DNA from: Peptococcaceae bacterium UBA5318
GTDB taxonomy: Bacteria > Bacillota > Peptococcia > DRI-13 > UBA5318
Assembly: GCA_002408285.1 (NCBI GenBank)
Contig: DHRG01000013.1
Coordinates: 4,536-68,535, forward strand
Length of the DNA stretch: 64,000 bases
Direction of reading: 5' to 3'
In this document: positions 2,833 to 38,984 of the stretch, piece by piece
Layout: the number at the start of each line of letters is the position of its first letter
Numbering within the stretch: position 1 is the first letter of the stretch
Program-made: the position numbers and the translations under genes
The notes under the pieces: model-generated
Database searches by the model: none
What the model was told of the DNA's origin: nothing
Seen by the model: the letters and a program-made list of their open reading frames with translations, nothing else

Positions 2833-2835
2833 TTT

Positions 2836-3257: not shown

Positions 3258-3280
3258 AGTAATTACTTAAATACTGAAGG

Positions 3281-4363: not shown

Positions 4364-4368
4364 TATAG

Positions 4369-4975: not shown

Positions 4976-5003
4976 AAGAAAAGAGCCTGCGGGCTCTTTT
5001 TAT
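4976..5003. terminator. Bidirectional stem-loop terminator
   Basis: AAAAGAGCC-tgcg-GGCTCTTTT is flanked by T/A runs on both strands and abuts the stop of the 5009..5437 gene. Confidence 0.5.
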
Positions 5004-5008
5004 AGTAT

Positions 5009-6228: not shown

Positions 6229-6252
6229 TTTAACAAAGAAAGCTGTCTATAC

Positions 6253-7179
6253 CTATGTTGAACCGATAGAAGGCTCCAGATACCTGCCTGCTTCCGCCAG
6301 GGGATAATCATGGTACCGTGCCTGGGAGGCCAGAGCTTCCCCGTCCCCACGGTACTTTTTGCGGAACTCCGAAGGTGTGCAGTGATAGCTTAGCTTGAAG
6401 TGTTTGATCAGGTATTTCGGGTCGGAAAACCCGCTTTCCGCTGAAATTTTGGCGATCCGTTTATCCGTACACAAGAGCAGTTTGGCCGCCTGTTCACCCC
6501 TGATGTGCTGCAGCAACCCCTGGAAGGTAAGGCCGAATTTGTCCTTAATGTCATGGGACAGATGATAAAGGCTGATGCCGGCTTCTCCCGCCAGATTTTT
6601 CAACCCCGGTTTTCCGGGAGGAAACTTCAAGATATCCTGATACATTTTTCTGTTTCTTTGTACCTGTTTTTCGTCAAAGGCTTTGCGCCCGGGTCCAAAG
6701 CGCAGGTAATCAAAGCTATAGGCCATATAGGAAAGCATTTTTCCCAGACACTCCCGGACGTTTTCTTCTTGATTTTTATGGGGCTTCTCATTGAACACAC
6801 CCAGCAAAGCAGCAAGATACCCCTTCAGCCTACGGTACTTTTCCGGCGCTTGTGTTTCGTAATACGGGGAACAGCAATAGATAACTGAATATTGATGATC
6901 CCGATGCAGCCCTCTATAGAAGGCGGCATCAATTTGCAGCAACAAAAGCTTATTATCCCGGCTGCCTCTATCAATCCGGTGTATCTCCTCCGGATTGATC
7001 ACCAGGATATCCTTCTCATTCAGCAGGTGGGTTGCGGCGCCTACCCCGACAGTTGCTTGTCCCTGCAAGACATAGACGATTTCCAAGGCACTGTGCCAGT
7101 GGTAGGGATAGCTGGTCACCTCCCGGACCATTGCCCTGAGCTGTCTGTCTGGCGGAAAGGTTATTACTTCCGGACGCAT
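6253..7179 (-). CDS. AraC family transcriptional regulator (N-terminal cupin, C-terminal HTH); paralog 1
   Basis: YPYHWHSALEIVYVLQG...INPEEIHRI is the cupin part and ...LAGEAGISLYHLSHDIKDKFGLTFQGLL...IAKISAESGFSDPKYLIKHFKLSYHCTPSEFRK is the AraC HTH. Confidence 0.85.
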   Translation of the reverse strand: MRPEVITFPPDRQLRAMVREVTSYPYHWHSALEIVYVLQGQATVGVGAATHLLNEKDILVINPEEIHRIDRGSRDNKLLLLQIDAAFYRGLHRDHQYSVIYCCSPYYETQAPEKYRRLKGYLAALLGVFNEKPHKNQEENVRECLGKMLSYMAYSFDYLRFGPGRKAFDEKQVQRNRKMYQDILKFPPGKPGLKNLAGEAGISLYHLSHDIKDKFGLTFQGLLQHIRGEQAAKLLLCTDKRIAKISAESGFSDPKYLIKHFKLSYHCTPSEFRKKYRGDGEALASQARYHDYPLAEAGRYLEPSIGST

Positions 7180-7236
7180 GCCTCTCTCAACTCCTCCTTT
7201 TATCCCTTTTCATTGTATTGCCCCGGTGGAAAAGAT

Positions 7237-7253
7237 TCATTGACAATTTTGCG
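7237..7253 (+). promoter_or_regulatory. 17-nt motif TCATTGACAATTTTGCG, copy A
   Basis: An identical 17-mer also occurs at 28214-28230 and 36578-36594. All three copies lie in 5' intergenic regions of island operons. Confidence 0.5.
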
Positions 7254-7254
7254 C

Positions 7255-7341
7255 ATAAACAGAGTTCTAACCTTCAGTGGGAGTTTTAACTCCCCACTGA
7301 AGGTTAGAACTCGTTATCCAGGAACTTAGCGCCGCTTAGCT
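7255..7341 (+). repeat. Structured intergenic repeat, copy 1 (short form, 87 nt)
   Basis: ATAAACAGAGTTCTAACCTTCAGTGGGAGTTTTAACTCCCCACTGAAGGTTAGAACTCGTTATCCAGGAACTTAGCGCCGCTTAGCTATCGGATA aligns with copies at 12042-12251 and, inverted, at 28050-28182. Confidence 0.85.
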
Positions 7342-7452
7342 ATCGGATAAAAAAACCTTTAAGAATTCTTAAAGGTTTTTGCCGTCCTATCTTTCTATGT
7401 GCCCTTTATTCTCCGGGTGAAAAAAGGAGCCTGCGCGTAGAGTGGACTGTCT

Positions 7453-8358
7453 TTATCCGCTGTATTTGTCCGCCTCGGAAAGAGGATAATCCTGATACCT
7501 TGCCTGCGCAGCCAGGGCCTTGCCGTCGGCCTGATGCGCTTTGCGGAACTTGGAAGGGGTGCATCCAAAGTTTAGTTTAAAATGCTTGATCAGATATTTC
7601 GGGTCGGAAAACCCGCATTCCATGGCGATGTCCATAATGCGTCTATCGCTGCTTAAAAGCAGCTTGGCCGCACGTTCTATCCTGCTGTAATACAACAATT
7701 CCTGAAAAGTGAAGCCGAACTTGTTTTTAATATCGTGACTCAGGTGGTGCAGGCTGACCTCAATCTCCGCGGCCAGTTCTTTAAGCCCAAGAGTCCGGTC
7801 GCAATTTTTGTTCGAATACAGAGCGATTTGTTTAAGCCTTTCTACCTGCCTTTCCTCAAAGGCTACCGTTCCATATCCCCAACGCAAAAGATCAAAGTTG
7901 TAGGTAAGATAATGGAGCATGGCCGTCACAAGGTTTTCAATATTTTTATGATGCCCCGCCTGAGGTTTGGCCTTTAAGGCCTCGATCAGCCGGGCCACAT
8001 ATCCCTTTAATTTTTTATACCTGTCGGGGGCCTTGGTCTCATGGTAGCTCGAGCAGCAGTAGAGAAACAAATACCTGTCGCCCAGGAGTTTCCGGTAGAA
8101 GCCGGAGTCGATTTGCATAATCAGGATTTGATTATCCTGCCGGCTTTTGACGATGCGGTGCAGCTCATTCATGTTAATGACGGCCAGATCGTTTTCATGC
8201 AAGAGAAGTTCGTCGTTACCCAAACTGATATGGACCGACCCTTTAAAGACCTGGACAATTTCCAGGGCTTCATGCCAGTGGTAGGGATATTCCTCCACAG
8301 ACCTGACGAAGGCCCTGACCGGCAGTTTATCCACGAATTCAATTATCTCCGGGCGCAT
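7453..8358 (-). CDS. AraC family transcriptional regulator (cupin plus HTH); paralog 2
   Basis: It is collinear with the 6253..7179 product, for example MRPEIIEF...YPYHWHEALEIVQVFKG against MRPEVITF...YPYHWHSALEIVYVLQG. Both share the tail ...GFSDPKYLIKHFKL..CTPS.FRK...DG.ALA.QARY.DYPL.EA. Confidence 0.85.
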   Translation of the reverse strand: MRPEIIEFVDKLPVRAFVRSVEEYPYHWHEALEIVQVFKGSVHISLGNDELLLHENDLAVINMNELHRIVKSRQDNQILIMQIDSGFYRKLLGDRYLFLYCCSSYHETKAPDRYKKLKGYVARLIEALKAKPQAGHHKNIENLVTAMLHYLTYNFDLLRWGYGTVAFEERQVERLKQIALYSNKNCDRTLGLKELAAEIEVSLHHLSHDIKNKFGFTFQELLYYSRIERAAKLLLSSDRRIMDIAMECGFSDPKYLIKHFKLNFGCTPSKFRKAHQADGKALAAQARYQDYPLSEADKYSG

Positions 8359-8526
8359 CTCCTCACCACCACCCGGCTGCCTCGCCTAAGGCGGCGCGCA
8401 GCGGAAAAATTCAAGATTGCGACATTTTAACTGTATCTATTATAATATTATATCCTTAAAACAGGAAAAACTGAATCCGAAAATCAACCGCTCACCCTGC
8501 CAGGGAGAGGAGGGTCTTGCCCTTGG

Positions 8527-8563
8527 GACAAAAATGCCGGCCTTGACCGTGGTCAAGGCCGGC
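8527..8563 (-). terminator. Rho-independent terminator downstream of the FecR-domain gene
   Basis: The GCCGGCCTTGACC/GGTCAAGGCCGGC inverted repeat is followed on the minus strand by ATTTTTG. Confidence 0.55.
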
Positions 8564-8637
8564 ACCTTCGTTGGCAGCGGTGAAACACGCCCAAAGCGTC
8601 GACCAGTCTGTCAATGAAGTAGCGAAAGAGCCGGGCT

Positions 8638-10467
8638 TCACGTAATCGGTATAAATATAAACTCGATAAGGTCTATCGGCTCTTCTCCCGGTCCTGGTAT
8701 GACGTTTATGGTGAAGCCGTCTTCCACACTTAAAGAACTTTCCTCAGGGATGGTGATCTGAAAGGTCACTTCTCCCTGTTCGTTCGTTGTGTTTTGCAGA
8801 GGAACACATTCATGACAGTCACCAGGCTCGTAAATACTACCGTCTATTGTATAGGTATACTCAGCTTCAGGAGCGGCGGCCCAGGTTTGAATCTCCAGAT
8901 AGAATTGGTGTCCCCCGATGGGGTTGCCGTAGCGGTCCCGTGCCGTCACCGTTATTGTGCTGGTCCGGTCGGGCTCCAGCAGCGATCCGACCGCCACGCC
9001 GCACTCAACCGGCTCCAAGGGGCCGGGCAGGATCACCTGCTCTACCTGGGAGGTTTCGTAGCCCGCCGCTTCCACCAGCACCGTCAGGGTCCCGGCTTTC
9101 TGCAAGCAGAGGCGCCCCTCGCCGGGCTCTCCGGGATACAAAGTAAGGCAGCCGCCAGACCCGTCCTCCATATTCTCTAAAACATAGTCTTCATCCTCGT
9201 CAAGTTCGAGTTCGCCCGCCAACTCGCTGTGACTGACTTTGACGCCTGTAACGGACTCCACCCACGCTTCGTCATAGGCAAAAGTTATTTCCAGTACATT
9301 GCCCGCCTCGTTCTCAGTGGTGTCGGCTGTCAGCGTGGCGGCCGGCAGCAGGGCAGCAACCCACTTGGCGTAAATGGTGATGTCGGCGGTGATCAGGGTA
9401 TTGGCAAAGTCAAATTCCGTCGTAAAGGCAATATCCGTATACCAGCCGGTAAAGGTATGCCCTGCCTTGGCCGGATCGGCCGGCCGGCCGGCTTTGCCGT
9501 TATTGTTCACAAGCTGGCTGGCGACCCCGCTTCCGCCGTCTACCTCAAAGCTTACAGTGAAGACGGGGGAAGGGGGCGGGCTGTCGTCTCCGCTTCCGCT
9601 GTCGTCCGTTCCGGAGTTGTCTTGCTGCACGTTTGAATCATACTCGATCAGGGGTTCAGGGTCTTCTTCCTCCTCTTCCTCCAACTGGCCGGCTTCTTCT
9701 CTTTTTTCCTCCATGACCTCATCCAGTTGTTCCAGGAAGCCGGGGTCAAAGGAGGCGGGGTCTGTCGCCGCCAGCTCTTTGATGATCTCCAGGACAAAAA
9801 GATCCAGGGAGCGGAGGGTAACTTCCTGGATGGGCACGGCATCAGGATCGCCGATGGTCCCCTTGGTCTCGATCTGCTGCTGCTGATCCAGGAGCAGTTC
9901 CACTTCCACTTGCCGGTAGCCGCCGCCGGGTTCCGGGATGTTTACGGTGGCGGACACATAGGCGGAACCGGCCAAGACGCTGTAAACTGTCTTGTCGCCC
10001 ACCTGGGAAACGTAGATTTTGGTGCCCCGGGCGCCCATTACGGCCGTGGACGTTTTGATTTCAAACCGGGAGCCGGAGGTCAGCTTTTTCTTGAGATCGG
10101 ACCAGATGCCGCCCGCCCAGAGACTGAAGCCGGACCTCTCTTCCTCTCCATCGGCCGACTCTACCAGTTCGCTGATGAGCAGGTTGGAATTTTCGGCGAT
10201 TTTTACGACCTTTTCCGCGCCGTCTATTTCCAGTGTCAGCGTAGAATTTTTGGCTGTGATGATCCGGTCCCCCTGCACCAGGCCCATGCCTTGAAAAGCG
10301 GGAAAAACCTTTTCTCCGCCGGCTTTCATGATCTTCACTTCACCGCTGAATTCGGCGATTCGCGCTACCCGCAAGGTTTCCCCGGCGTAAACCACGGCGG
10401 CCGTGGCCAGCAGCAGGAAACCCGTGATGATTGCCGCCGCCGCATACAAGCGCCCTTTCGCAGCCAT
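8638..10467 (-). CDS. Secreted or membrane-anchored multidomain protein: FecR domain, acidic linker, Listeria-Bacteroides (Flg_new) repeat, Ig-like (Big_1-like) domain
   Basis: An N-terminal TM/signal (LYAAAAIITGFLLLATAAVVYA) is followed by a FecR-like segment (GEVKIMKAGGEKVFPAFQGMGLVQGDRIITAKNSTLTLE). After an EEEEEED linker come GHTFTGWYTDIAFTTEFDF...ITIYAKW and ITVTARDRYGNPIGGHQFYLE. I prefer the start at 10467 (GGGGG ribosome-binding site). Confidence 0.7.
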   Translation of the reverse strand: MAAKGRLYAAAAIITGFLLLATAAVVYAGETLRVARIAEFSGEVKIMKAGGEKVFPAFQGMGLVQGDRIITAKNSTLTLEIDGAEKVVKIAENSNLLISELVESADGEEERSGFSLWAGGIWSDLKKKLTSGSRFEIKTSTAVMGARGTKIYVSQVGDKTVYSVLAGSAYVSATVNIPEPGGGYRQVEVELLLDQQQQIETKGTIGDPDAVPIQEVTLRSLDLFVLEIIKELAATDPASFDPGFLEQLDEVMEEKREEAGQLEEEEEEDPEPLIEYDSNVQQDNSGTDDSGSGDDSPPPSPVFTVSFEVDGGSGVASQLVNNNGKAGRPADPAKAGHTFTGWYTDIAFTTEFDFANTLITADITIYAKWVAALLPAATLTADTTENEAGNVLEITFAYDEAWVESVTGVKVSHSELAGELELDEDEDYVLENMEDGSGGCLTLYPGEPGEGRLCLQKAGTLTVLVEAAGYETSQVEQVILPGPLEPVECGVAVGSLLEPDRTSTITVTARDRYGNPIGGHQFYLEIQTWAAAPEAEYTYTIDGSIYEPGDCHECVPLQNTTNEQGEVTFQITIPEESSLSVEDGFTINVIPGPGEEPIDLIEFIFIPIT

Positions 10468-10492
10468 CTGCCGACCCCCTTTCAATTTCAAT

Positions 10493-11992
10493 TTATTGAT
10501 CACGGCTCTTTAGGAAAACCGCCCGCTCTTGTTCCACCCATTCCACCTGAAAACCCATGCGCTCGGCCAGGTAACGCAGGGGGATCATGGAGCGGTTCTC
10601 CCTGATTGTCAGGTAGGGCGCAGCAAAAGCCTGTTCCAGGGCCCCTTTTTTCACGATAGCCTTATGTTCATGAGGCAGCCACTGCACCTGGCCGCCCAGT
10701 TTCTCGCCGAGGGCCCGGAGAGGCAGGATGACCCGCCCCTGCTCGATATAGGGTTCCGCATCGGGGAAGGGCAACAGTTCTCCGTCCAGCCATACCCGGA
10801 TCCTTTCGGCAGCGGGGGCCGGGGTTAAAAGGCGGGGGAGGTTGTAGGGATCAAGGGGCAGAGCGCGCAAACCATTGTTCCACATGTCGGAAATATAGAG
10901 AACGCCATCATGATAGAGGAGATCCACAGGACCGTTCAGCATGGACGTGGAGGTCTCCGCGGTCCGGCCGGCTCTGCCGGTGCCGGCGATGGTGATTGCC
11001 TCGCCCTGGGGCGTCAGCGCTCTGACCCTGTGGTTCCAGGTATCGGCGATAAAGATGACGCCGTTGGGCGCAAGGTCTATTCCTTTGGGGAAATTAAACC
11101 TGGCCTCGGCCCAGGCGCCGTCCCGGTAGGCCCCCGGCGCATAATCGGTCTCCTCTTCCCTTAGATCCCGGAAACCGGCCAGTGTGGAAACCTGCAGGTC
11201 TTGGATTTTTCTGACCAACTGGTTGCCGCTGTCCAACACATAAAGCGCCCCGTTTCCGGCCAGGGCAAGCCCGGCCGGTTCGTTGAACCGAGCCCCGCCG
11301 ACCGGACCGTCCCGGTAGCCTCCGTTGGGGCCCGCTTGGCCGGCCAAGGTAGATACAAGTCCTTGGGGCGTTATTTTCCGGATCACATTGTTCAGGGTGT
11401 CGGAAACATAGAGATTGTCGTGTTCATCGATGGCCAACCCAGAAGGCGCGTTGAACCGGGCCTGGTTCCCCGTGCCGTCTTGATAGCCCGGCCGGCCGTT
11501 CCCCGCAAAAGTGCTGACTCTGCCGCCGGAAATTTTGCGGATGGCGTGGTTGCCGGTATCCGCCACATAAATCGTGTTGGCGGAATCCACGACTATACCC
11601 CGGGGATTTCTGAAACGGGCCTTTTCCGCCGCTCCGTCTACATACCCGCCGGCCGGAAACCCAAAAGCGTCAAAACTGTCGGAAAAGCCGGCCACCGTGG
11701 TAACCTGGTCGCCCGCAATCTTCCTGATCCGGTTATTGTGGGAATCTGCCACGATGATCTGGTTGTCCTTGTTGGCAGTCAGGCCGTAGGGAAAGCGGAA
11801 ATCCGCTTCCAGCCTGCTTCCGTCCTGGTAGCCAAATTCCCCGGAGCCCGCATAGAAGGTGGGGACAGAGCCGGAGGCCGGAAGGGAGAAGCCCGTCAAT
11901 ACCGCGATGAGCAGGAAAAGGGCCGGCCAGATGAATCTGCCGGGGGCAGCGCGGCGGAACCGGGCCTTGGGCAAGGGCTGGGCCGATGGCAT
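10493..11992 (-). CDS. NHL-repeat beta-propeller protein with a C-terminal copper-amine-oxidase-N-terminal-like (stalk) domain
   Basis: Six repeats of the type ADSHNNRIRKI / ADTGNHAIRKI / SDTLNNVIRKI / LDSGNQLVRKI / ADTWNHRVRAL / SDMWNNGLRAL are present. The C-terminus reads ILPLRALGEKLGGQVQW...MIPLRYLAERMGFQVEW. The start is at 11992 (GGGAGG 8 nt upstream). The track start at 12043 lies inside the repeat element. Confidence 0.8.
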   Translation of the reverse strand: MPSAQPLPKARFRRAAPGRFIWPALFLLIAVLTGFSLPASGSVPTFYAGSGEFGYQDGSRLEADFRFPYGLTANKDNQIIVADSHNNRIRKIAGDQVTTVAGFSDSFDAFGFPAGGYVDGAAEKARFRNPRGIVVDSANTIYVADTGNHAIRKISGGRVSTFAGNGRPGYQDGTGNQARFNAPSGLAIDEHDNLYVSDTLNNVIRKITPQGLVSTLAGQAGPNGGYRDGPVGGARFNEPAGLALAGNGALYVLDSGNQLVRKIQDLQVSTLAGFRDLREEETDYAPGAYRDGAWAEARFNFPKGIDLAPNGVIFIADTWNHRVRALTPQGEAITIAGTGRAGRTAETSTSMLNGPVDLLYHDGVLYISDMWNNGLRALPLDPYNLPRLLTPAPAAERIRVWLDGELLPFPDAEPYIEQGRVILPLRALGEKLGGQVQWLPHEHKAIVKKGALEQAFAAPYLTIRENRSMIPLRYLAERMGFQVEWVEQERAVFLKSRDQ

Positions 11993-12041
11993 ATGGCATT
12001 CCTCCCTGAAAAATTTACCGCAAAAGCGTGATCGTCCGTTC

Positions 12042-12251
12042 ATAAACAGAGTTCTTAGCTTCAGTGGGAGTTTTAACTCCCCACTGAAGGTTAGCCGCTC
12101 TCGGACATCCGTGTCCTCCGCGGCATTAGGCCGTCCGTGGCCGTTAGAAATCGTTATCCAGGAGCTTAGCGCCGCTTATCTCCCGCTTTTGGGTTATAGC
12201 TTCCAGCTCCAGAAAGAAGTGGGAGTATTAGCGACGGTTAGCTATCGGATA
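12042..12251 (+). repeat. Structured intergenic repeat, copy 2 (long form, 210 nt)
   Basis: It shares both termini and the hairpin core with copies 1 and 3 and carries about 50 nt of extra internal GC-rich sequence. Its right end (TTAGCTATCGGATAG) supplies the last codons and the stop of the MBL gene. Confidence 0.85.
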
Positions 12252-13092
12252 GAGAAAGGATCATTCCTTCCTTGGCCGCTAAACATTGAGGGAAGCGGGC
12301 CCGAGCCAATTGTTCGATCTCATCAAGTTCCTGATCGCTTCTCCGGGGGCTGTGGTGAAATAAGATAAGCCTCCCCACGCCCGCTTGGCCGGCCAGTTTA
12401 ACAGCCTCCTGCCAGGTTGAGTGCCCCCAGCCTTTTTGAGCGGGGCGTCCCGCCTGCCCCAGATACTCCTCGTCGGTGTAGGTGGCGTCGTAGATCAGCA
12501 GGTCGCAGTCCCGGCAGAACTCCGCTAAGTTTTTATCCGTCACGGCATGATGCTCATGGTCGCCAAGATAACAGACGGAATGTCCGTTAAGCTGCAGGCG
12601 GTAAGCGGTGTTTCCCATGGGATGGTTGGTGGGGGCGGTTTTGACCGTTATTCCCCCCTCCAGGCCGAACTCCTGCCCTGCCTCTATTTCCCGGAAAACC
12701 ACCTCTGCCTTCATTTGTTCTAGTCCAATGGGGAAGAAGGGGGCCTGCATCTGCCTGGCGAAGAGTTCCGTCAGGGGAAAACCCGGTTTGCCTTCCCCAT
12801 AAACAGTGAAATGGTTCCCCCGGACAAAGGCCGGCTCAAAAAAGGGAAACCCGTGAATATGGTCCCAATGGACATGGGAAATGAGGAGATGGGCTTTTGC
12901 CGCACCGGTCCTTTCCATCCATTCTTGGCCGAGATTGCAGAGCCCTGTCCCCGCGTCAAAAATCACCTGGGTTGCTCCTGCCTGCACCTGGATGCAGGCG
13001 GTATTCCCGCCATATTTCAGGGTGTTTTTGCCGGGAACCGGTCTGGAACCCCTTACCCCCCAAAAGGTGACGGAGATTTGCACCGGGTTCAT
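12238..13092 (-). CDS. MBL-fold metallo-hydrolase (possible cyclic-nucleotide phosphodiesterase)
   Basis: The metal-binding motif HLLISHVHWDHIHGFPFF is followed by ...YLGDHEH..., ...DATYTDEEY... and ...WGHST... The phosphodiesterase role is inferred only from the adjacent cyclase gene. Confidence 0.75.
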   Translation of the reverse strand: MNPVQISVTFWGVRGSRPVPGKNTLKYGGNTACIQVQAGATQVIFDAGTGLCNLGQEWMERTGAAKAHLLISHVHWDHIHGFPFFEPAFVRGNHFTVYGEGKPGFPLTELFARQMQAPFFPIGLEQMKAEVVFREIEAGQEFGLEGGITVKTAPTNHPMGNTAYRLQLNGHSVCYLGDHEHHAVTDKNLAEFCRDCDLLIYDATYTDEEYLGQAGRPAQKGWGHSTWQEAVKLAGQAGVGRLILFHHSPRRSDQELDEIEQLARARFPQCLAAKEGMILSLSDS

Positions 13093-13187
13093 CCCTGCTC
13101 CCTCCTCGCTATAAAGTGAATCCCTATGCGGAGAGCGGTTTAAGCTCCTCCGCCTATTATTGGTTTGAGCTAATCCCGGAGCGCCGG

Positions 13188-15032
13188 TTAATCTTCGGGC
13201 AAAATTCCCTCCAACTGGTAGACGGCCAGCCGCTGGCTCTTGCCTTTCACCGTTATTTCGCCGAGGCCGCTAACTTTTACCTGTTCTTTCACCCGTTCGT
13301 AAGTGGACTGGCTTAAGAGGATTTGCCCCGGCTTGGCATTGCTTTCCAGCCTGGCGGCGGTGTTGACCGTATCGCCGATGGCCGTATAATCCATGCGGAA
13401 CTGGGCCCCGATATTGCCGACGATGGCTTCGCCCGTATTGATGCCCACGCCGAAATCAACGGTGCGGCCGTATTTTGCCAGCAGCCGCTCCTTCATCTGT
13501 GCGCTCCCTTCCTGCATGACCCAGGCCGCCTGCGCCGCTTTCAGGGCATGGTCGGGCAAGTCAAGGGGCGCGTTGAACAGGGCCATGGCGGCGTCGCCGA
13601 TAAACTTATCCAGGGTCCCGCCATAGGCAAAGATGGCCCGGGCGCAAAGGTCCAGGTATTCATTGAGGACTTCTACAACTTCTTCGGGTTCGGCCTTTTC
13701 GGAAAAAGGCGTAAAACCACGAATGTCCGCAAACAGGACGGTTATTTCCCGACGCACCCCGCCCAGCTTGAGGCCGGCTTCGCCGGAGGTCAGGATTTCC
13801 TTGACCACCTGGGGCGCCACGTAGCGTCCGAAAACCGCGGTAACACGTTTGCGTTCCAGCAATTCTTCCAGGTAGTGATAAAAGAGGCCCAGCAGATAGC
13901 AGGCAACGGCCAGCCCCACCGGGTAGAGGAGGGACAACAGCCAACCTTTTTGATAGAGCAGCCTGGCCGTTGCTCCATAGCCGAGGATCAGGGCGGCGGC
14001 CACAAAGACAGCCCGCCCCGGGCTTAATTTGCGCAAGGCCCAGATGCTGACGCCGGTAAAAAGCAGCAGGACGGCCAGGATGGACCAATAGGGCGCCTGC
14101 TGTTTAAAGTCGCGGTATAACAGGTTCTGAATAATGTTGGCATGTATTTCTACGCCAAACATGGCGGTCTGGTGGTCCAGCGGCGTGGGATAGGAATCGT
14201 GGAGGCCGACGGCATAAGGCCCCACCAGGACGATCTTGTCTTCAAAATAGGCCGGAGGGATTTCGCCGTTCAAGACCTGGTAAAAGGAGAAGCGTTCATA
14301 ATCGCCGGGTCTTCCCTGGTAATTGATATGGATCCTGTTCCAGGGATCCGTGGGCACAAGGTCCGGGGAATAAGCCTGTCCCCTTGTCTGTAAATAGGCG
14401 TTGGCGATTTTCCAGGCAAAACTGGGGATGGTTTCTTCCTGGTAATCGTAAAAAAGAACCGTCTTTCGCACCACGCTGTCGGGGTCCGGGAAGGTATTGA
14501 CGTGCCCGCTGAGGGCCTGCGCCTTAAGCAGCGGTACGGCTTCCTTCAGGTCGGCGGGCTGCAGCTTGCTTCCGGTCCGGACTGTTCCGCTGAAATAACC
14601 CACCGCGGGCAAGACGGTATTTTCGGTTTTATCCAGGGCTTGGGCCAAGGCCAGATCCTCAGCCGGCTGGGGGTCCGGTTCGGAAAACAGGATGTCGATT
14701 CCCACCGCCGCAGGTTTCCCCTGCGCCAGCTTTTCCAGAAGTTCGGCATGGGTGCTGCGCGGCCACGGCCACCTGCCCAGTTTTTCCAGGCTGGGCTCAT
14801 CGGCGGCAATAATGACGATCCGGCTGTCCACCCGGCCTTTGCCCTGATAGAGCCAGTCCTGGGCCATATTGTCCATATTCTCCCCCACATTGGCATAGGA
14901 GAGGATGGCGAAAACAAGAAAGGCGACTGCCAGCAAGAAGGATAATTTTATTTTCAAAGGGGTTCCTGCCTTTCTCCGGCAATTTAAAAAACATGTTCCC
15001 ATTATCCTACCATTTTTTTCAGGACTTTTCAT
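13188..15032 (-). CDS. CHASE2 sensor domain-containing class III adenylate/guanylate cyclase
   Basis: The order is an N-terminal TM, a periplasmic CHASE2-like region (RIVIIAADEPSLEKLGRWPWPRSTHAELL...), three TM helices, then a cyclase domain: VTVLFADIRGFTPFSEK...GGTLDKFIGDAAMALFNAP...FGVGINTGEAIVGNIG...YTAIGDTVNTAARLES. The start could be the internal ATG at 15002. Confidence 0.85.
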   Translation of the reverse strand: MKSPEKNGRIMGTCFLNCRRKAGTPLKIKLSFLLAVAFLVFAILSYANVGENMDNMAQDWLYQGKGRVDSRIVIIAADEPSLEKLGRWPWPRSTHAELLEKLAQGKPAAVGIDILFSEPDPQPAEDLALAQALDKTENTVLPAVGYFSGTVRTGSKLQPADLKEAVPLLKAQALSGHVNTFPDPDSVVRKTVLFYDYQEETIPSFAWKIANAYLQTRGQAYSPDLVPTDPWNRIHINYQGRPGDYERFSFYQVLNGEIPPAYFEDKIVLVGPYAVGLHDSYPTPLDHQTAMFGVEIHANIIQNLLYRDFKQQAPYWSILAVLLLFTGVSIWALRKLSPGRAVFVAAALILGYGATARLLYQKGWLLSLLYPVGLAVACYLLGLFYHYLEELLERKRVTAVFGRYVAPQVVKEILTSGEAGLKLGGVRREITVLFADIRGFTPFSEKAEPEEVVEVLNEYLDLCARAIFAYGGTLDKFIGDAAMALFNAPLDLPDHALKAAQAAWVMQEGSAQMKERLLAKYGRTVDFGVGINTGEAIVGNIGAQFRMDYTAIGDTVNTAARLESNAKPGQILLSQSTYERVKEQVKVSGLGEITVKGKSQRLAVYQLEGILPED

Positions 15033-15062
15033 TGACTATTTTGTTGTGTTCAAGCCATCTCT

Positions 15063-16709: not shown

Positions 16710-17052
16710 CGCTTATCGTTCCTTTCTGAAAATCCCGGTAATCCCGGTGCCAGTCCAGGAAGCAAAAGGGCTTCATTTCACCCTTGACCACCAAGGCGGC
16801 CAGGAAATCCTTCCCGACCAGCCAAGACGCCCTCTCCCCCCGGTGCTCCGGTTCATTTTCCCAATAAATAACCCTCCCTTTCAGCAAGAGGATGCGGTAG
16901 GCCGCAGCCCTTTCCTGTTCCCGCTCATCCAAAATCTCTTCCCAGGGTTCGCCGGGTTCACTAACCTGGTCCAAATTCGCCGACCACAGATGGATGGCCC
17001 GCTCCAGCCCCTTGGCGTCAATCCTTCCCTTGCTCTGTACTTCTTTACTCAC
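16663..17052 (-). CDS. Hypothetical 129-aa protein with faint resemblance to the N-terminal half of an Sfp-type phosphopantetheinyl transferase
   Basis: IHLWSANLDQVSEPGEPWEEILDEREQERAAAYR recalls the vhvW...L...E..Ra..f opening of Sfp/PfaE PPTases. It is only about half the length of one. It overlaps the pfaD start by 47 nt. Confidence 0.3.
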   Translation of the reverse strand: MSKEVQSKGRIDAKGLERAIHLWSANLDQVSEPGEPWEEILDEREQERAAAYRILLLKGRVIYWENEPEHRGERASWLVGKDFLAALVVKGEMKPFCFLDWHRDYRDFQKGTISDASGRYKPSHHWFLA

Positions 17053-17119
17053 TGAAATTCACCCCTCTCCCCTTGCTCTTTTCCAGGGGGGCGCCCCTCC
17101 TCCCCTGCGCTTCTCCATC

Positions 17120-20483: not shown

Positions 20484-20539
20484 GCGGCCTCCCCCCTCTC
20501 ATCTTCTCAGCTTCTCACCGTCTTCTATCTTCTGATATC

Positions 20540-35900: not shown

Positions 35901-36515
35901 AATGCGCCCAGCCACCACACTTCCCAACAGCCCGGGGAAAGAGCTTTCCCGCCAGGGCAGGTGGTTGCCGGCAATCCGGTCGCAAACCTCCTCTATCTTC
36001 TGCTCCGGCAGCCCGCTTTCTCTCAGCCCTTGCGCCCAAAGGGACCTTTGCACACTGCTGCCCAAATGGATGGCAAGCTCCGTACCGGAAGTCACGCCCA
36101 GGATAACGCTGGTTTTTTCTTTGTTCAGGTTTTTAAATTGGAAGCGGCAAGCCTCCTCCAGAACTCTTTGGGCCACGACTAAGGCTAAAAGCTGGCAAGT
36201 ATCCGTCGCCTTTAAATTATGGGGCGGAATGGCAAACTCCAGGGGATCAAAAACTATGTCCGGGAGAAAGGCGCCCCTTTTGCAATAGGTTTTATCGGGA
36301 GCCGCGGGATCAGGATGATAGTAATCGTCTATCAGCCAGTGAGAGCAGGGAACATCCGTGATGAGGTCCTTTCCTTCAAGAATGTTTTTCCAGCAAGCTC
36401 CCCGGTTGTCTCCTCCGGGCAATAAAGCGCTGATCCCCACAACGGCGATGGGTTGACAAGGTTCCACCAGGATTTTCACCTTCCTCCGGTCGGTTATGCC
36501 TGATTGGTCCAGCAC
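32916..36515 (-). CDS. PfaA-like type I PKS/FAS: ketosynthase - acyltransferase - single acyl carrier protein
   Basis: The KS shows TIVDAACGSSL, EAHGTGT and IGHTKAAAG, plus the Pfa-type segment SHWLIDDYYHPDPAAPDKTYCKRGAFLP. The AT shows FPGQGSQY, LAGHSYGE and TAFHS. The ACP shows [16 protein letters not shown]. Confidence 0.9.
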   Translation of the reverse strand: MLDQSGITDRRKVKILVEPCQPIAVVGISALLPGGDNRGACWKNILEGKDLITDVPCSHWLIDDYYHPDPAAPDKTYCKRGAFLPDIVFDPLEFAIPPHNLKATDTCQLLALVVAQRVLEEACRFQFKNLNKEKTSVILGVTSGTELAIHLGSSVQRSLWAQGLRESGLPEQKIEEVCDRIAGNHLPWRESSFPGLLGSVVAGRIANHFDLQGTNTIVDAACGSSLCAVSMAILELQSGKADLVITGGADTQNDIFMYLCFSNILALSPTGDCRPFSRQADGTVLGEGIAMVALKRLADAEKDGDPIYAVITGLGSSSDGRAKSIYAPRAEGQVLAVRRAYEAAGYGPDTVELVEAHGTGTRAGDAAEFAGLARVFPGEGKKQWCALGSIKSQIGHTKAAAGAVGLFKAVMALHHQVLPATIKVDQPNPNLKIEDSPFYLNTQSRPWIRGLDHPRRAAVSAFGFGGSNFHVTLEEYRKPGNRPAKLRTMPYELFLLAGRSPEELLRQGQGLLEEISACPSGSWTPSVRNGWHVALAKQAQAQYDPERAYRLALVSSNLDDLAAKIKQSLERIGTKPEQALDLSAGIYYATKRMTGKIAFLFPGQGSQYLNMGRDLALHFDCAREVWDRAAELAAGPQGEKLHDFVFPRPAFDGETRKLQEDCLTDTRIAQPAIGAMSLSLLAVLKQLGLQADLLAGHSYGEITALAAAGVFSEDAMLHVAKKRGELMQETSGNKGAMTSVFLPPAEAEALLKRLNLSVVVANINSPEQVVVSGPEEEIRQLEAACKQQGLPFIRLPVSTAFHSALVEPSVKPFRQYLQGVAFQKSAVPVYANLAAKPYPEEPESMKDLLARQIANPVRFAELIGRMAGEGVGLFIEVGPGGVLTGLAKQCLTGQDVKAVATDGKGQHGILSLLQAVACLSVLGVKLDYSCLWSGYGSLQDPRDEKKPAYPVKINGANYGKPYPQKNKSIDRQVSTMNQKERQQREQTGREHTREQEVSSVSLDLIQKQMTEAHLAFQKALTESHQAYLGFSEKLLAALTGQRPAAIPEKDGPAGEEQGLWQQAEHSLLELAHADQAGLIAGKSAAPPLPAEIPGYSGQEPVAGRGSGDGGKPSLSVRETVLEVVSEKTGYPVELLDLDSDLEAGLGIDSIKRVEILATVQERLAESLDAEPPDPDNSLPLALHTLKEIIAFLEQRVKKN

Positions 36516-36577
36516 AACCTGCCCTAAAGATGGAATTTTTCACATTGCCTTTATTTTATTTTCTTTGCCCCAAAATT

Positions 36578-36594
36578 TCATTGACAATTTTGCG
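36578..36594 (+). promoter_or_regulatory. 17-nt motif TCATTGACAATTTTGCG, copy C
   Basis: It lies about 63 nt upstream of the PKS gene start, on the opposite strand. Confidence 0.5.
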
Positions 36595-36897
36595 GTTTGA
36601 AAAAATTCCTTCCCGCCGCTCCAAACCGCCGGATATGTATATATCCCACAGCTTATAAGGAATGGAGCAGGGGCTAATGATCCTATTTTTTCAAATGCAT
36701 CTATGGAAAAACAAAAGAAGCCGACTGTATCATCAATCGGCTTCTTTCGACAAAATATTTTGAGAAGTTTGGTGAATATAGATGCCATCGGCGCGTGGAC
36801 TGAAAAACACCTTTTTCGACGCAAACCGAGAGCGAGGGATTGCCTGCGCGGTCTACCACGCTGAAAAAGTCGCTCAAATACATTTATGCCGTTTTGT

Positions 36898-37113
36898 TCA
36901 CATAATATGGAGCGCTCTTTTGTAGAGCGGATCAAATTCACATCCGCAGCTACCACATTCTTTATCCGCCTGCTTTATAGCAGCAATCAATTGATCTTTG
37001 TTTCCATTACCCTCAAGCCATGCTTTTGATGGAGCGGCAATGAAGTCCCATCCTGATTCAGCAAATTTCGTTATGATTTGAATCAATTCTTCGCGGTTTT
37101 TGTTTTCCATCAT
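36898..37113 (-). CDS. Hypothetical small protein (71 aa)
   Basis: A strong GGAGG ribosome-binding site lies 4 nt upstream of the ATGATG start. The composition is plausible (MMENKNREELIQIITKFAESGWDF...CGSCGCEFDPLYKRAL). I do not recognise the family. Confidence 0.4.
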   Translation of the reverse strand: MMENKNREELIQIITKFAESGWDFIAAPSKAWLEGNGNKDQLIAAIKQADKECGSCGCEFDPLYKRALHIM

Positions 37114-37475
37114 CTTTCCTCCTCAGATATTTTTTGATTTTTTCATACTTTCCATTGGATTCAAGTTTAATTTTAATCGCTCGATAATAGAGTTAAGCCT
37201 TTTTTCTCTTCCTTCCCCGGTCTTTGCGCCAGTATGTGATCATATAGCGCGTCCATATTGGAGGGTTGTAGAAAAACAACCTAACCTACAACATCAAAAT
37301 AATAAGCCCCCACATAGGCGCAGGGCTTCGTTAGCTAGGAGATTATTTGGTGAGGAGGCGTATCTCACATCTCTTTATAGACCGCTTGACGCGGTAGCGG
37401 CAGCTGCCTGTTCTGCCCTCAAATAACCCCCTTTGGCTAGCTTATTCATTTGTACGTCTTCAATAGGTAACCAAC

Positions 37476-37780
37476 TTAAAAGATGTACTTTTTTAATTCC
37501 TTGTAGAAATTCTCCCTTGTACCTGCGAGAACAACAACTACTGTTTGCCCGTTAACCGTTTCAATGTAATAGGCTATTTCATAGTTAATACCGGCATGAA
37601 ATAGATCATAGCCGAAGAAACCAGCTAAATCGCCAGTTTTCCTCTCTCCTTTTTCCTCTCTCCTATATACGGATTTTCCCTTATCGTCAAGATTGCGGCT
37701 TCAAAGGCTCTTTTAAGCTGTTTATCTTTAATCTTCCTAAGATATTTTTCCGCAGGAGGGCTTAATCGCACAGGCAACAA
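37476..37780 (-). pseudogene. RelE/ParE-family toxin gene disrupted by a 14-bp tandem duplication
   Basis: The minus strand reads TTG-LPVRLSPPAEKYLRKIKDKQLKRAFEAAILTIRENPYIGERK, then two adjacent 14-nt units (plus-strand 37636-37649 and 37650-37663, 13/14 identical). The frame shifts to ...GDLAGFFGYDLFHAGINYEIAYYIETVNGQTVVVVLAGTRENFYKELKK*. Deleting one unit restores a single 96-aa frame. Confidence 0.65.
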
Positions 37781-37783
37781 TAT

Positions 37784-38185
37784 TCAGTCCTCCCGATCAT
37801 TGAAGATATCCGAAAAAACCTGATCCGGATCACGGGTATCTTTCATGACCGCAGCAAGAGCATCCTGGCGAATCCTCTGAGCGGCTGTTTTCATTTTCCC
37901 TTTTGCTTCCGCGAAAGCTTTAACTAATTCATCGCCCTGGAGTCCTTTGTCGACTAGATCTTTTAGTATCAGATCGCTATAATCATCGAAGCTGTCATTT
38001 GGTTTGACTAACCGGCGTATCACAATTTCATTATCTTTGAGGATGCATTCAACCTGCTTGGATAATCCCAGGGTTTCCGCAAACTTCTGGGGAATCGTGA
38101 TTTGGTTTTTGGATGATACGTTTATAACACGGCTTTCTTCACTCATCCCGCGTAGTCCTTTCATCTTTTCGAGTGCTATTGCCAT
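37784..38185 (-). CDS. AbrB/MazE/SpoVT-family antitoxin
   Basis: INVSSKNQITIPQKFAETLGLSKQVECILKDNEIVIRRL is a SpoVT-AbrB swapped-hairpin motif. Its stop lies 3 nt before the toxin TTG start. Confidence 0.7.
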   Translation of the reverse strand: MAIALEKMKGLRGMSEESRVINVSSKNQITIPQKFAETLGLSKQVECILKDNEIVIRRLVKPNDSFDDYSDLILKDLVDKGLQGDELVKAFAEAKGKMKTAAQRIRQDALAAVMKDTRDPDQVFSDIFNDRED

Positions 38186-38583
38186 ATTATATCCCTCCCC
38201 GTTAAAAAATAGACCTATTTCCTAGAAGCATGCAAAGTAATATTTCTGTACTTCTTTACTTGTGTATTTCCATCATAGCTTAACCTATATTAAAAGTCAT
38301 TAAAATAATTTAAAAATCTTATCACTCCGCAACTTTGCGGAGTCAGTTTATATCAATGAGCATGGCTGCCGGCAGAAAAGAAATGGTTTCCCTGCTGAAA
38401 AGAACGGACTGCGAGGATGCCCTGTCGAGTCATCAGAATAATGTAAAGTTTCTTCTTGTGCAAAATAAAAGGCCCCTTATGGAGCATTAAAAAGAGTAAT
38501 ATTGATTTTAAATTAATTATATATTTGTCATACCCTGGAGTAGATGCTAATTCATTTAAGTTAATACGCCTTGCTTCTGGACC

Positions 38584-38800
38584 ATCTTCTTTAATGCAGG
38601 GTGTGATGCTGTCTGTTTTGCTGTCAGGAAATTAGCTGGGCATAAAAAAGACATCATCCCCAAAAACCCAATGATAAAGGCAGAAACGGTTTCAGTAGAT
38701 ACCAAGGAGCCGGAATCTTATGATATTGCCTCGATATCTGAGCGATTAGGGCATAGCGATAAAACACACAACCTGGAGAATATTTATGCTTCTGATGTCA
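38584..38800 (+). pseudogene. Heavily deleted tyrosine-recombinase (phage integrase) remnant
   Basis: One frame reads ...AVRKLAGHKKDIIPKNPMIKAETVSVDTKEPESYDIASISERLGHSDKTHNLENIYAS. This joins an N-terminal-domain-like segment (..g.I..NP) directly to the C-terminal LGHS....Y motif. There is no catalytic core and no proper start. Confidence 0.45.
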
Positions 38801-38894
38801 CCTTTTCAAGCAGGTGTCACCAAATTGTCGCTTTTTCCTTTGAAGACCATATAAAAAAGCTCCAGGGAGAAAACCCAAGAGCCTTACTCTCATA

Positions 38895-38984
38895 TGGCGG
38901 AGGGGGTGGGATTCGAACCCACGGAACCCGCAAGGATCCAACGGTTTTCAAGACCGCCTCCTTCAACCGCTCGGACACCCCTCC
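38895..38984 (-). tRNA. tRNA-Ser (anticodon UGA), with encoded CCA
   Basis: The minus strand reads GGAGGGGTGTCCGAGCGGTTGAAGGAGGCGGTCTTGAAAACCGTTGGATCCTTGCGGGTTCCGTGGGTTCGAATCCCACCCCCTCCGCCA. It has a 7-bp acceptor stem, a CT-TGA-AA anticodon loop, a long variable arm and GGTTCGAATCC in the T-loop. Confidence 0.9.

Follow-up and report, generated by a model that had tools for sequence, protein, structure and literature searches.

The pfaA genes of iterative lipid synthases are generally richer in GC than the genomes in which they reside, and this has been attributed to the amino-acid composition of their products (Shulse and Allen, PMC3098273). Another described system relevant to the present locus is the PlsA/Ger type of enzyme, for which a domain architecture with two BcrAD_BadFG activase domains and a DUF2229 domain has been reported (PMC13159169). 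Homologues of both are encoded in a GC-rich block of the DNA examined here, a stretch of 64,000 nucleotides from an anaerobic Firmicute that has not been cultured, which will be referred to as the window.

The PfaA-like synthase of the block is a protein of 1199 aa with domains KS-AT-ACP (32916..36515, minus strand; Pfam ketoacyl-synt, Ketoacyl-synt_C, Acyl_transf_1 and PP-binding), which matches the PfaA model TIGR02813 with E = 1e-287, under the full-length cut-off. The KR-DH protein encoded next to it (777 aa; 30571..32904, minus; Pfam KR and PKS_DH_N) aligns to positions 1877-2567 of the same model, i.e. to the C-terminal part of PfaA, and in a metagenomic relative of the locus it forms one fused gene with the upstream synthase (2011 aa). 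Also present are a PfaD-family enoyl reductase (15063..16709, minus; TIGR02814 617 bits, cut-off 449; Pfam NMO and FabD_helical_ins) and a fusion of a dehydratase with a 1-acylglycerol-3-phosphate acyltransferase (DH-AGPAT; 17120..19603, minus; Pfam PS-DH and Acyltransferase), the acyltransferase domain of which is matched by TIGR00530. Neither a PfaC-type KS-CLF nor a phosphopantetheinyl transferase is encoded within the window.

Three genes of phospholipid head-group metabolism lie among those of the synthase, namely a CdsA-like CDP-diglyceride synthase (27130..27972, minus; PF01148, E = 3e-44), a PssA-like CDP-alcohol phosphatidyltransferase (20540..21151, minus; PF01066; TIGR00473 pssA E = 1e-22, under the cut-off) and a phosphatidylserine decarboxylase (19551..20483, minus; PF02666 E = 1e-53; NF001941 373.6 bits, cut-off 371). 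The PlsA/Ger-type enzyme (22877..27136, minus; 1415 aa in database records) has the two activase domains and the DUF2229 domain of the published architecture according to Pfam, and its nearest homologues are found in the metagenomic relative (90% identity), in Desulfamplus (63%) and in Clostridia (55-58%). Its gene abuts with zero gap that of a radical SAM enzyme with a B12-binding-like domain (21144..22877, minus; Pfam Radical_SAM, with a weak B12-binding match), position 22877 being common to both ORFs. For the latter enzyme every NCBIfam match falls under its cut-off, and only the distant relatives OxsB and AprD4 were found in the PDB. On the plus strand, an ABC exporter composed of a TM domain, an ATPase and a C-terminal cNMP-binding domain is encoded (28341..30515; ABC_membrane, ABC_tran and cNMP_binding, the last with E = 3e-24); it resembles exporters of the MsbA, HlyB and HepA types and scores under their cut-offs.

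The left part of the block holds a cNMP/surface module (8507..15056, minus), whose Pfam domains identify a CHASE2 adenylate/guanylate cyclase (13188-15032), an MBL-fold hydrolase (12238-13092; a weak Apyc1 family match is on record), an NHL and Cu-amine-oxidase-N protein (10493-12043) and a FecR/Flg_new/Shr-HID protein (8638-10503), all on the minus strand. The module is missing from the closest relative of the island, which has 115 bp in its place; in a distant second cluster the cyclase, NHL and MBL genes are likewise linked to lipid genes. Two AraC-family regulators (6253-7179 and 7453-8358, minus; Pfam HTH_18 and AraC_binding), which have island-like codon usage and occupy the same place in the metagenomic relative, form the left end of the shared block.

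In 1-kb bins, the mean GC of positions 9001-36000 is 0.577 (sd 0.027, n = 27) against 0.438 in the bins outside them (sd 0.042, maximum 0.523, n = 33; Mann-Whitney p = 3e-11). An earlier note on this DNA had reported such a block from hand counts of 60-nt lines, and all seven counts are exact (63, 57 and 60% in the block; 47, 40 and 45% in the origin region; 37% in line 5101). The right edge is sharp, as the note had stated in placing an abrupt switch at about 36.5 kb: between 36.0 and 36.6 kb, GC in 200-nt intervals drops from 0.55-0.61 to 0.41-0.45. The left limit that it gave, 6240, agrees with a homology boundary at 6248 (see below) but not with the GC edge, which lies at about 8.6 kb, the AraC genes (6253-8358) having an intermediate GC of 0.49-0.50. 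Over the whole unit, 6248-36628, GC is 0.568.

The block differs from its host in more than GC, within the 71 kb of sequence that the comparison covers. GC3 is 0.64-0.74 in each gene from 8638 to 36515 and 0.37-0.53 in serS through dnaA and in the genes to the right of oriC, so that the block genes, including the non-PKS enzymes, the transporter and the surface proteins, stand about 20 points higher. Relative synonymous codon usage (RSCU) correlates at 0.96 within the island and at 0.55 with host genes; taking the lipid genes as reference, r is 0.96 for the cNMP module and 0.82 for the AraC genes. The tetranucleotide correlation with the host is 0.32-0.48 in the block as opposed to 0.77-0.95 outside, and the GC skew of the block is -0.050 versus -0.144 in the adjacent replichore, a value weak for its position, which counts against a native block. 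The synonymous codon usage and the tetranucleotide signature of the block are thus foreign.

Part of the GC excess has a different source. In view of amino-acid composition alone, the expected GC is 0.502 and not 0.446, the former being the value obtained when the island proteins are recoded with host synonymous preferences, against an observed 0.579; about 5.6 of the 13.3 excess points (some 40%) are accounted for in this way, and the remainder by synonymous codon usage. The higher-GC donor proposed earlier is no more than plausible. The block exceeds its flanks in GC in all three hosts in which it was found, and this elevation could in part be an intrinsic property and not a donor signature; the nearest named homologues of the island proteins (Pelotomaculum, Paenibacillus/Cohnella and Desulfamplus) point to no donor.

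To the right of the block lies tRNA-Ser(TGA) (38895-38984, minus; ARAGORN and Rfam), whose 3' end faces it, as had been claimed. A conserved tRNA array begins with this gene. In relatives, tRNA-Ser(GCT) and tRNA-Arg(ACG) come 14-170 nt after it. Thermanaerosceptrum, Desulfovirgula and a number of metagenome-assembled genomes have such an array unbroken, the order serS, tRNA-Ser(TGA), tRNA-Ser(GCT), tRNA-Arg(ACG) being ancestral. On the source contig, the last two are found in the same orientation 4.3 kb to the left of the window and, since they adjoin tRNA-Ser(TGA) in relatives, about 43 kb must have been inserted. This insertion of about 43.2 kb, directly 3' of tRNA-Ser(TGA), which is its right border, splits the array; it is absent in relatives, and one with an 81%-identical SerS has in its place an empty site of 98 nt with a conserved tRNA-Ser(GCT) promoter. 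Because no closer relative with an empty site is available, the insertion can be dated only loosely. Host-like composition extends over about 10.5 kb on the left and 2.3 kb on the right, so that the insertion is composite and foreign composition is limited to the lipid block. The tRNA-Ser gene thus stands by synteny as the site suggested in the earlier note, with an insertion that is larger, running past the left end of the window, and composite. The proximity to oriC also held: matches to the DnaA box (23, with 11.6 expected) are concentrated in two clusters (51140-51295 and 52768-53026) around dnaA (51298-52665, minus), and the cumulative GC-skew minimum falls at these clusters, which places oriC (51140..53026) 12-14 kb from tRNA-Ser(TGA).

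Homology and codon usage together delimit a transferable unit of 30.4 kb (6248..36628, minus), which has the PKS promoter at one end and the stop of the second AraC gene at the other and is shared with other genomes. The metagenomic relative (ENA scaffold_38) carries it collinearly at about 90% nucleotide identity from window position 36628 to 6248, and Pelotomaculum terephthalicicum JT carries it at 80-84% from position 36617; in both, homology starts about 110 bp upstream of the PKS gene. The neighbours upstream are JetC/JetD, a GGDEF protein, a flavin reductase and LigD in the former, and a ParE/Phd pair, a MerR regulator and a flavodoxin in the latter, and comparison of the flanks of the three carriers revealed no homology among them. 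The block is therefore a discrete unit with the same right end point in three genomes and unrelated neighbourhoods.

Horizontal acquisition of the lipid block, which the earlier note had inferred, is well supported by its foreign codon and tetranucleotide signature, by the unrelated neighbourhoods in two other anaerobe genomes and by the absence of the insertion in relatives. We consider it probable that the 30.4-kb cluster, a set of lipid genes, reached its place within the larger insertion by way of an integration hot spot. Foreign DNA would have accumulated at the 3' flank of tRNA-Ser(TGA), with the lipid block as the latest addition, in which amelioration has gone least far. The block may have been brought in by an integrative element that later decayed, or it may have inserted secondarily into mobile-element debris that was there before.

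A possible, less favoured explanation, which follows the earlier note, is that one integrative element, about 33 kb in length (~5571-38936), entered at tRNA-Ser(TGA) with integrase, toxin-antitoxin pair, accessory genes and lipid cluster, and later lost its integrase by decay. Synteny does break exactly at the 3' end of the tRNA, and both ends of the high-GC block are marked by debris. On the right, the low-GC junction (36629..38894; GC 0.406) contains an intact antitoxin (37784-38185, minus) and a frameshifted ParE-like toxin (~37450-37780, minus; PF15781 E = 2e-20 once repaired), which confirms the broken pair noted before, as well as a skipping-rope RNA (37342-37427, minus) and a 71-aa ORF (36898-37113, minus). 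On the left, a host-like stretch (1..6247, host-like also in tetranucleotide signature), which continues 4.3 kb past the window to tRNA-Ser(GCT), encodes DUF134, DUF1847, a DtxR-like repressor, ferredoxins, an ArsR-family regulator, DUF2383 and a methyltransferase fragment (Pfam). That this last is a truncated methyltransferase is weakly supported; truncated-gene debris lies at 5687-6235, the 'FRG' piece reported there is a C-terminal fragment of the phage-associated family phrog_4962 (E = 1.4e-9), and the 'Fic' piece found no confirmation.

Two further features would speak for a single element. A motif like the C-terminus of an integrase (ISERLGHSD..NIY, ~38730-38800, plus) adjoins the tRNA, but this putative remnant, taken as an integrase earlier, gave no match in Pfam, PHROGs, phage tblastn or PDB phmmer searches. 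The left debris is bordered on its outside by an exact 16-nt direct copy (5555..5570, plus), in the right orientation, of tRNA-Ser positions 38937-38952 (anticodon loop, 3' side of the anticodon stem and start of the variable arm), and any 16-mer match to the tRNA region occurs in just 0.5% of block shuffles. However, an att duplication should reach the 3' end of the tRNA, and this match does not continue in that direction; it also overlaps the promoter-like TTGAAA-N17-TATAAG of the DUF2383 gene; an att scar and a chance match are both possible. No repeat of the tRNA-Ser 3' end was found, this isolated copy being one of the anticodon-loop region, and neither an integrase nor a transposase nor an att repeat could be confirmed, so that integrase-mediated targeting of tRNA-Ser followed by decay remains inferential. 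Moreover, the debris is host-like in composition and the cargo is not, the insertion between the tRNAs measures 43 kb and not 33 kb, and the junction has no homology to the block flanks in the other two genomes. As these carry the block without the toxin-antitoxin and junction DNA, it need not have come with the debris.

An ancient acquisition followed by vertical inheritance from an ancestor shared with the 90% carrier, the neighbourhoods having been changed later by turnover of mobile DNA around an operon under selection, appears unlikely. It would account for the collinearity with that carrier over 24 kb with a single 6.5-kb indel, and for homology ends that coincide in the boundary alignments with the operon limits, promoter and last stop codon, as selection combined with flank turnover would give. 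On the other hand, the island proteins reach 88-90% identity, whereas the best SerS match in 5.8 billion proteins is 82% identical, leaving aside a 99%-identical cluster in which the query itself is evidently included. The Pelotomaculum PKS shares 78% identity with that of the block, yet no Pelotomaculum SerS is among the 120 best SerS matches, all with at least 69% identity. Composition and GC skew are also unameliorated, and the relative with 81% SerS identity has nothing inserted at the tRNA site.

That the block is native and owes its GC to the amino acids which Pfa-type lipid genes encode and to a codon bias linked with their expression accords with the elevated GC of pfaA homologues (PMC3098273), the amino-acid contribution calculated above and the elevation in all three carriers, but is very improbable and largely refuted by the rise of GC3 in all block genes, the distinct tetranucleotide signature, the differing flanks, the empty site and the weak GC skew.

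As to the hot-spot reading preferred here, the domain content of the cargo suggests a gene cluster for a special membrane lipid. An acyl chain would be built by the Pfa-type iterative synthase (KS-AT-ACP, KR-DH, the DH-AGPAT fusion and the PfaD enoyl reductase) and placed by the AGPAT domain straight onto the glycerol phosphate backbone, from which CdsA, the PssA-type transferase and the decarboxylase would lead to a phosphatidylethanolamine-type lipid. The PlsA/Ger-type enzyme may convert the sn-1 ester into a vinyl or alkyl ether, and the adjoining B12-type radical SAM enzyme may methylate the chain or act on it by C-C chemistry. Transport of the lipid could fall to the ABC exporter, whose cNMP-binding domain would respond to a cNMP signal that would be made by the CHASE2 cyclase and probably degraded by the MBL hydrolase, with transcription presumably regulated by the two AraC proteins. 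As a genomic island the locus is clear but fairly ordinary; its cargo is unusual.

The window contains one long stretch whose base composition departs from that of its surroundings. The 27 consecutive 1-kb bins of 9001-36000 have a mean GC content of 0.577, the lowest (0.482) lying at one divergent promoter region at about 28-29 kb, against a mean of 0.438 for the bins outside the block, none of which exceeds 0.523 (Mann-Whitney p = 3e-11). Likewise, GC3 is 0.64-0.74 in all the genes between 8638 and 36515, and 0.37-0.53 in serS, serA, ackA, gyrA, gyrB, recF, dnaN, dnaA and the genes to the right of the origin. The earlier note had recognized this high-GC block from seven hand counts of 60-nt lines, all of which reproduce to the percent on recount, and had placed an abrupt switch on the right at about 36.5 kb; both claims hold, the GC drop at this edge being abrupt at 36.0-36.6 kb. 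Its left boundary, at 6240, holds in part: homology with a metagenomic relative ends at 6248, but the GC edge lies at about 8.6 kb, and the AraC genes in between (6253-8358) are intermediate in GC.

Codon usage, tetranucleotides and GC skew, which the same note had named as checks, all deviate over 6.2/8.6-36.6 kb. The relative synonymous codon usage (RSCU) of the lipid genes correlates at 0.96 with that of the cNMP module, at 0.82 with that of the AraC pair and at 0.55 with that of the host. In 3-kb segments between 7.4 and 37.3 kb, tetranucleotide frequencies correlate with the island reference at r = 0.86-0.96 and with the host reference, which consists of 71 kb of sequence only, at r = 0.32-0.48 (0.65 in the right-edge segment); outside these limits, and also in the 4.6 kb past the left end of the window, the relation is the other way round. 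The GC skew of the block is -0.050, compared with -0.144 in the adjacent replichore, with the same gene orientation. It should be noted that Shulse and Allen (PMC3098273) found pfaA genes to be generally GC-richer than their own genomes and ascribed this to amino-acid composition. Encoding the island proteins with the synonymous preferences of the host gives a GC content of 0.502, while 0.579 is observed and host genes have 0.446; thus, about 5.6 of the 13.3 excess GC points come from amino-acid composition and the rest reflects synonymous usage.

The same block was found in two further genomes. On a 252-kb metagenomic scaffold (ENA scaffold_38, hereafter the 90% relative), homologues with 88-90% identity are encoded for both the PlsA-like protein and the PKS, and the scaffold is collinear with the window from 36628 to 6248 at about 90% nucleotide identity, except for 8507-15056; divergence begins immediately after the AraC stop codon. 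In Pelotomaculum terephthalicicum JT, the PKS is 78% identical in amino acids and 80-84% in nucleotides, with homology from window position 36617. In a three-way alignment, alignability starts at the same point in all, about 110 bp before the start codon of the PKS gene, and no protein-level similarity was found among the flanks of the three carriers. Upstream of the PKS, the 90% relative has JetC/JetD, an AAA_14 protein, a GGDEF protein, a flavin reductase and LigD, with neither a tRNA nor serS, while Pelotomaculum JT has a Fic fragment, a MerR regulator, a ParE/Phd pair and a flavodoxin. No tRNA was present near the cargo in the readable upstream DNA (up to 10 kb) of these other carriers, and a search of both ends of the 30.4-kb unit revealed no terminal repeats. 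The block exceeds its flanks in GC content in each of the three genomes. The immediate neighbours in the other two carriers are the Wadjet genes jetC/jetD (L085 1-3254) or ParE/Phd and the Fic fragment (L087 6716-8713), defence or addiction genes whose presence suggests that the cluster tends toward variable, defence-island-like regions.

The relatedness of the hosts was judged from the seryl-tRNA synthetase SerS. Among 5.8 billion proteins, no other SerS is more than 82% identical to that of the window, barring a cluster at 99% that is evidently its own sequence. The named matches are from Thermanaerosceptrum (77%), Peptococcia metagenome-assembled genomes (75-76%) and Desulfotomaculum-type taxa (70-73%). 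SerS from Pelotomaculum is missing from the best 120 matches, all at least 69% identical, and the 78% identity of the Pelotomaculum PKS is therefore discordant with host relatedness; the two genera belong to different families in the NCBI taxonomy. A link between an 81% SerS match and the sample of the 90% relative was rejected, the two samples being different. A SerS search of the species-representative genome collection gave a best match of 70% identity; the island was present in none of the 80 SerS loci obtained, which did reveal the organization of the tRNA array.

The right-hand neighbour of the block is a tRNA-Ser(TGA) gene (38895-38984, minus strand) whose 3' end faces it. DnaA-box clusters at 51140-51295 and 52768-53026 flank dnaA at the turning point of the cumulative GC skew, which places this tRNA 12-14 kb from oriC, in agreement with the earlier estimate of about 15 kb at most. 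An isolated perfect DnaA box, TTATCCACA, occurs far from oriC at 67-75 and is probably fortuitous. A T-box leader scoring 126.8 bits (42080-42276, minus strand) precedes serA and is accompanied by a 39-nt inverted self-match at 42057-42095; in Thermanaerosceptrum, a similar leader occurs twice in the serC/serA region.

The source contig (ENA ERZ922858, SRR1561950, 'fermentation metagenome', 71,441 bp) reaches 4.6 kb past the left end of the window, and this extension carries tRNA-Ser(GCT) and tRNA-Arg(ACG), both in the orientation of tRNA-Ser(TGA). In Thermanaerosceptrum, Desulfovirgula and several metagenome-assembled genomes, serS and tRNA-Ser(TGA) are followed after only 14-170 nt by tRNA-Ser(GCT)/tRNA-Arg(ACG). 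The relative with the 81% identical SerS (L096) has serS, tRNA-Ser(TGA), 98 nt, tRNA-Ser(GCT), 5 nt and tRNA-Arg(ACG), i.e. an empty site, and its promoter upstream of tRNA-Ser(GCT) can be aligned with that of the source contig. The tight array of the relatives, compared with the split array of the source contig, indicates that about 43.2 kb were inserted immediately 3' of tRNA-Ser(TGA). Read from the far side, the insertion comprises DUF4015, polysaccharide deacetylase, SAICAR-synthase-like and NifB-like/flavin reductase genes, followed by DUF134, DUF1847, a DtxR-like repressor, ferredoxins, an ArsR-family regulator, a methyltransferase fragment and DUF2383, all of them host-like in composition; then come truncated-gene debris, the lipid island and a 2.3-kb low-GC junction.

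Three independent Logan assemblies, from this organism or relatives of it, end within tRNA-Ser(TGA) or precisely at its end (L001 and L089 at window position 38955, L092 at the CCA of tRNA-Ser). Presence/absence polymorphism was rejected as an explanation, because sequence shared by isoacceptors would break an assembly after the first 30 nt of the tRNA; the breaks in L001 and L089 are probably de Bruijn graph branches with other tRNA-Ser isoacceptors, and strain variation downstream of tRNA-Ser would fit that in L092.

The horizontal acquisition of the block proposed earlier is thus well supported by its foreign codon usage and tetranucleotides, by its unrelated contexts in other genomes and by the site being empty in a relative. 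The tRNA-Ser site is real and is best regarded as a hot spot whose 43-kb insertion is composite; within it, the lipid block is the layer with a foreign composition and probably the youngest one.

As the mechanism of insertion, the earlier note had proposed integration targeted to tRNA-Ser followed by decay of the mobility genes. The insertion at the tRNA 3' end speaks in favour of this, but the integrase remnant and the attachment-site repeat that would accompany it were not found. The supposed remnant amounts to a short ISERLGHSD motif, which was negative in Pfam, PHROGs, phage tblastn and PDB phmmer searches and in tblastn against the 81 fetched loci. No ORF scanned with Pfam contained a recombinase domain, no tRNA fragment was present upstream of tRNA-Ser(GCT), and no match was obtained for the junction DNA in plasmids or for the antitoxin in viral contigs. 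A direct repeat of the tRNA-Ser 3' end was likewise absent; the only copy is of 16 nt of the anticodon-loop region (5555-5570, corresponding to 38937-38952). Such a match is statistically unusual (a 16-mer was obtained in 0.5% of shuffles), but it stops short of the tRNA 3' end and coincides in part with TTGAAA-N17-TATAAG, a promoter-like site of the DUF2383 gene. A second 16-nt direct match, not used as evidence, extends to about 70 nt at 73% identity (5303-5369 vs 38243-38305); the two matches have the same order and orientation in the two junction regions with different spacing, and an ancient duplication, a remnant of att or a chance occurrence in AT-rich DNA could each account for them.

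The broken toxin-antitoxin pair described earlier is indeed present in the low-GC junction, the AbrB/MazE-like antitoxin being intact and the ParE-like toxin carrying one frameshift. The broken ParE gene adjoins a skipping-rope RNA (RF02924; 37342-37427, minus strand; 65.1 bits, gathering score 36.7), with a terminator-like hairpin just downstream (37325-37308) and then a Cys-rich 71-aa ORF without family match (36898-37113, minus strand). Weinberg et al. 2017 describe this RNA as associated with a protein-coding gene in its vicinity. One piece of the debris is a C-terminal fragment of phrog_4962 (E = 1.4e-9). Since the other carriers lack the junction DNA, debris and lipid block need not have arrived together. 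Integrase-mediated targeting is plausible overall, and its single-element version is doubtful.

Islands associated with tRNA genes typically start from the tRNA 3' end, contain toxin-antitoxin and truncated accessory genes, have an empty counterpart in relatives and are built of composite layers. The present insertion shares all these features, but it shows no recombinase gene and no duplication of the tRNA 3' end, and its foreign cargo is separable from the debris, occurring elsewhere without a tRNA in the readable upstream DNA.

As an island, the locus is ordinary; its cargo, whose function is deduced from domains only, is the more interesting part. Except for the exporter, all its genes lie on the minus strand. 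The first encodes a PfaA-like KS-AT-ACP protein (32916-36515; TIGR02813 E = 1e-287) and the second a KR-DH protein corresponding to the C-terminal part of PfaA (30571-32904; TIGR02813 E = 1e-88); as the protein is split, neither reaches the full-length cut-off. The KS-AT-ACP-KR-DH order of a PfaA-like synthase is thus distributed over two adjacent genes (1199 and 777 aa, 11 nt apart). They are split also in Pelotomaculum JT and form a single 2011-aa gene in the 90% relative (L082 667-6702 vs window 30571-36515). An ABC exporter with a C-terminal cNMP-binding domain (28341-30515, plus strand) is followed by CdsA (27130-27972) and by a 1419-aa PlsA/Ger-type protein (22877-27136) with two BcrAD_BadFG domains and DUF2229; no HGD-D (PF06050) match was reported in its C-terminal approximately 520 residues. 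Next are a radical SAM protein with a weak B12-binding domain match (21144-22877), for which PDB and NCBIfam gave distant class-B-like relatives only, a PssA-type CDP-alcohol phosphatidyltransferase (20540-21151), a phosphatidylserine decarboxylase exceeding the NCBIfam cut-off (19551-20483), a dehydratase-AGPAT fusion (PS-DH + AGPAT, 17120-19603) and a PfaD-family enoyl reductase (15063-16709; TIGR02814 617 bits, cut-off 449). No second KS or CLF was found in a search for a PfaC-type KS-CLF protein with tandem FabA dehydratases, the only candidate being the PS-DH + AGPAT protein. No phosphopantetheinyl transferase (PfaE) was detected among the window ORFs scanned with Pfam, and one could be encoded elsewhere in the genome. 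The cargo combines a reduced Pfa-type synthase with head-group enzymes, a PlsA/Ger-type protein, a radical SAM protein and a putatively cNMP-controlled ABC exporter, a combination of which a literature search on cluster architecture returned no description.

Like the pfa island of Vibrio splendidus 12B01 (Shulse and Allen 2011, PMC3098273), the block carries a PfaA/PfaD-type iterative synthase as a clean insertion relative to related genomes, and horizontal transfer is deduced by comparative genomics in both cases. That survey obtained no conclusive compositional signal, whereas GC3, RSCU and tetranucleotides all give a strong one here. In addition, the present cluster lacks PfaC (KS-CLF) and PfaE and adds a full head-group pathway, the PlsA/Ger-type protein, radical SAM and the cNMP module; its architecture matches none of the Types in the text of PMC3098273, in a comparison that leaves out a direct one with Type T (Clostridium thermocellum).

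The plasmalogen synthase PlsA/PlsR of anaerobes and a variant of it, the glycerol ester reductase Ger (PMC13159169; PMC12838417), convert the sn-1 ester into a vinyl or alkyl ether under anoxic conditions. The island protein has the domain architecture described in PMC13159169 (two BcrAD_BadFG and DUF2229) and is 55-58% identical to Clostridia proteins of this family, a likeness in sequence that does not distinguish a vinyl from an alkyl product. Elsewhere a stand-alone housekeeping gene, it is here part of a mobile cluster with a PKS-type acyl-chain synthase and head-group enzymes.

The dehydratase-AGPAT fusion has a parallel outside the Firmicutes. PUFA synthases with a terminal AGPAT domain occur in myxobacteria. 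They are mentioned in PMC8436480. The shared fusion suggests that the synthase product may be passed directly onto the glycerolipid backbone. In contrast to the myxobacterial enzymes, the present synthase belongs to an anaerobic Firmicute, is strongly reduced (a single KS, no CLF) and is coupled to a putative anaerobic ether-bond enzyme.

The left part of the block contains a CHASE2 adenylate/guanylate cyclase (13188-15032), an MBL-fold hydrolase with a weak Apyc1 match on record (12238-13092), an NHL + Cu-amine-oxidase-N protein (10493-12043), a FecR/Flg_new/Shr-HID protein (8638-10503) and two AraC regulators (7453-8358 and 6253-7179), all on the minus strand. In the 90% relative, the 6.5 kb encoding the cyclase, MBL, NHL and FecR proteins (8507-15056) is replaced by 115 bp (L082 21774-21889). 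In a more distant cluster (L095), with a 70% identical PlsA-like protein, CHASE2 cyclase, NHL and MBL genes stand directly upstream of CdsA-PlsA-PssA-Psd-FabA/AGPAT, which makes the cNMP module an old companion of the lipid genes; from this comparison, the 90% relative has probably lost it. As that relative keeps the cNMP-binding ABC exporter, the latter would there be an orphan receptor.

A further reading is that the block is a self-sufficient, recombinase-free lipid cassette circulating among anaerobic Firmicutes, which would move as a unit and give its recipient a complete polyketide-derived ether phospholipid route with cNMP-gated export or flipping. The circuit would consist of the CHASE2 cyclase, the Apyc1-like MBL phosphodiesterase and the cNMP-binding ABC exporter. 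We regard this reading as unlikely; if it were true, the cluster would represent a second-messenger-controlled membrane-remodelling module, of which no description was found in the literature.

The locus is a well-documented case of the horizontal movement of an entire membrane-lipid pathway between strictly anaerobic Firmicutes, into a tRNA-array hot spot near the origin. The association of a Pfa-type synthase with a PlsA/Ger-type protein, a B12-type radical SAM protein and a putatively cNMP-controlled exporter bears on which organisms make unusual ether lipids under anoxic conditions, and if such pathways are mobile, lipid biomarkers would not be tied to lineages.
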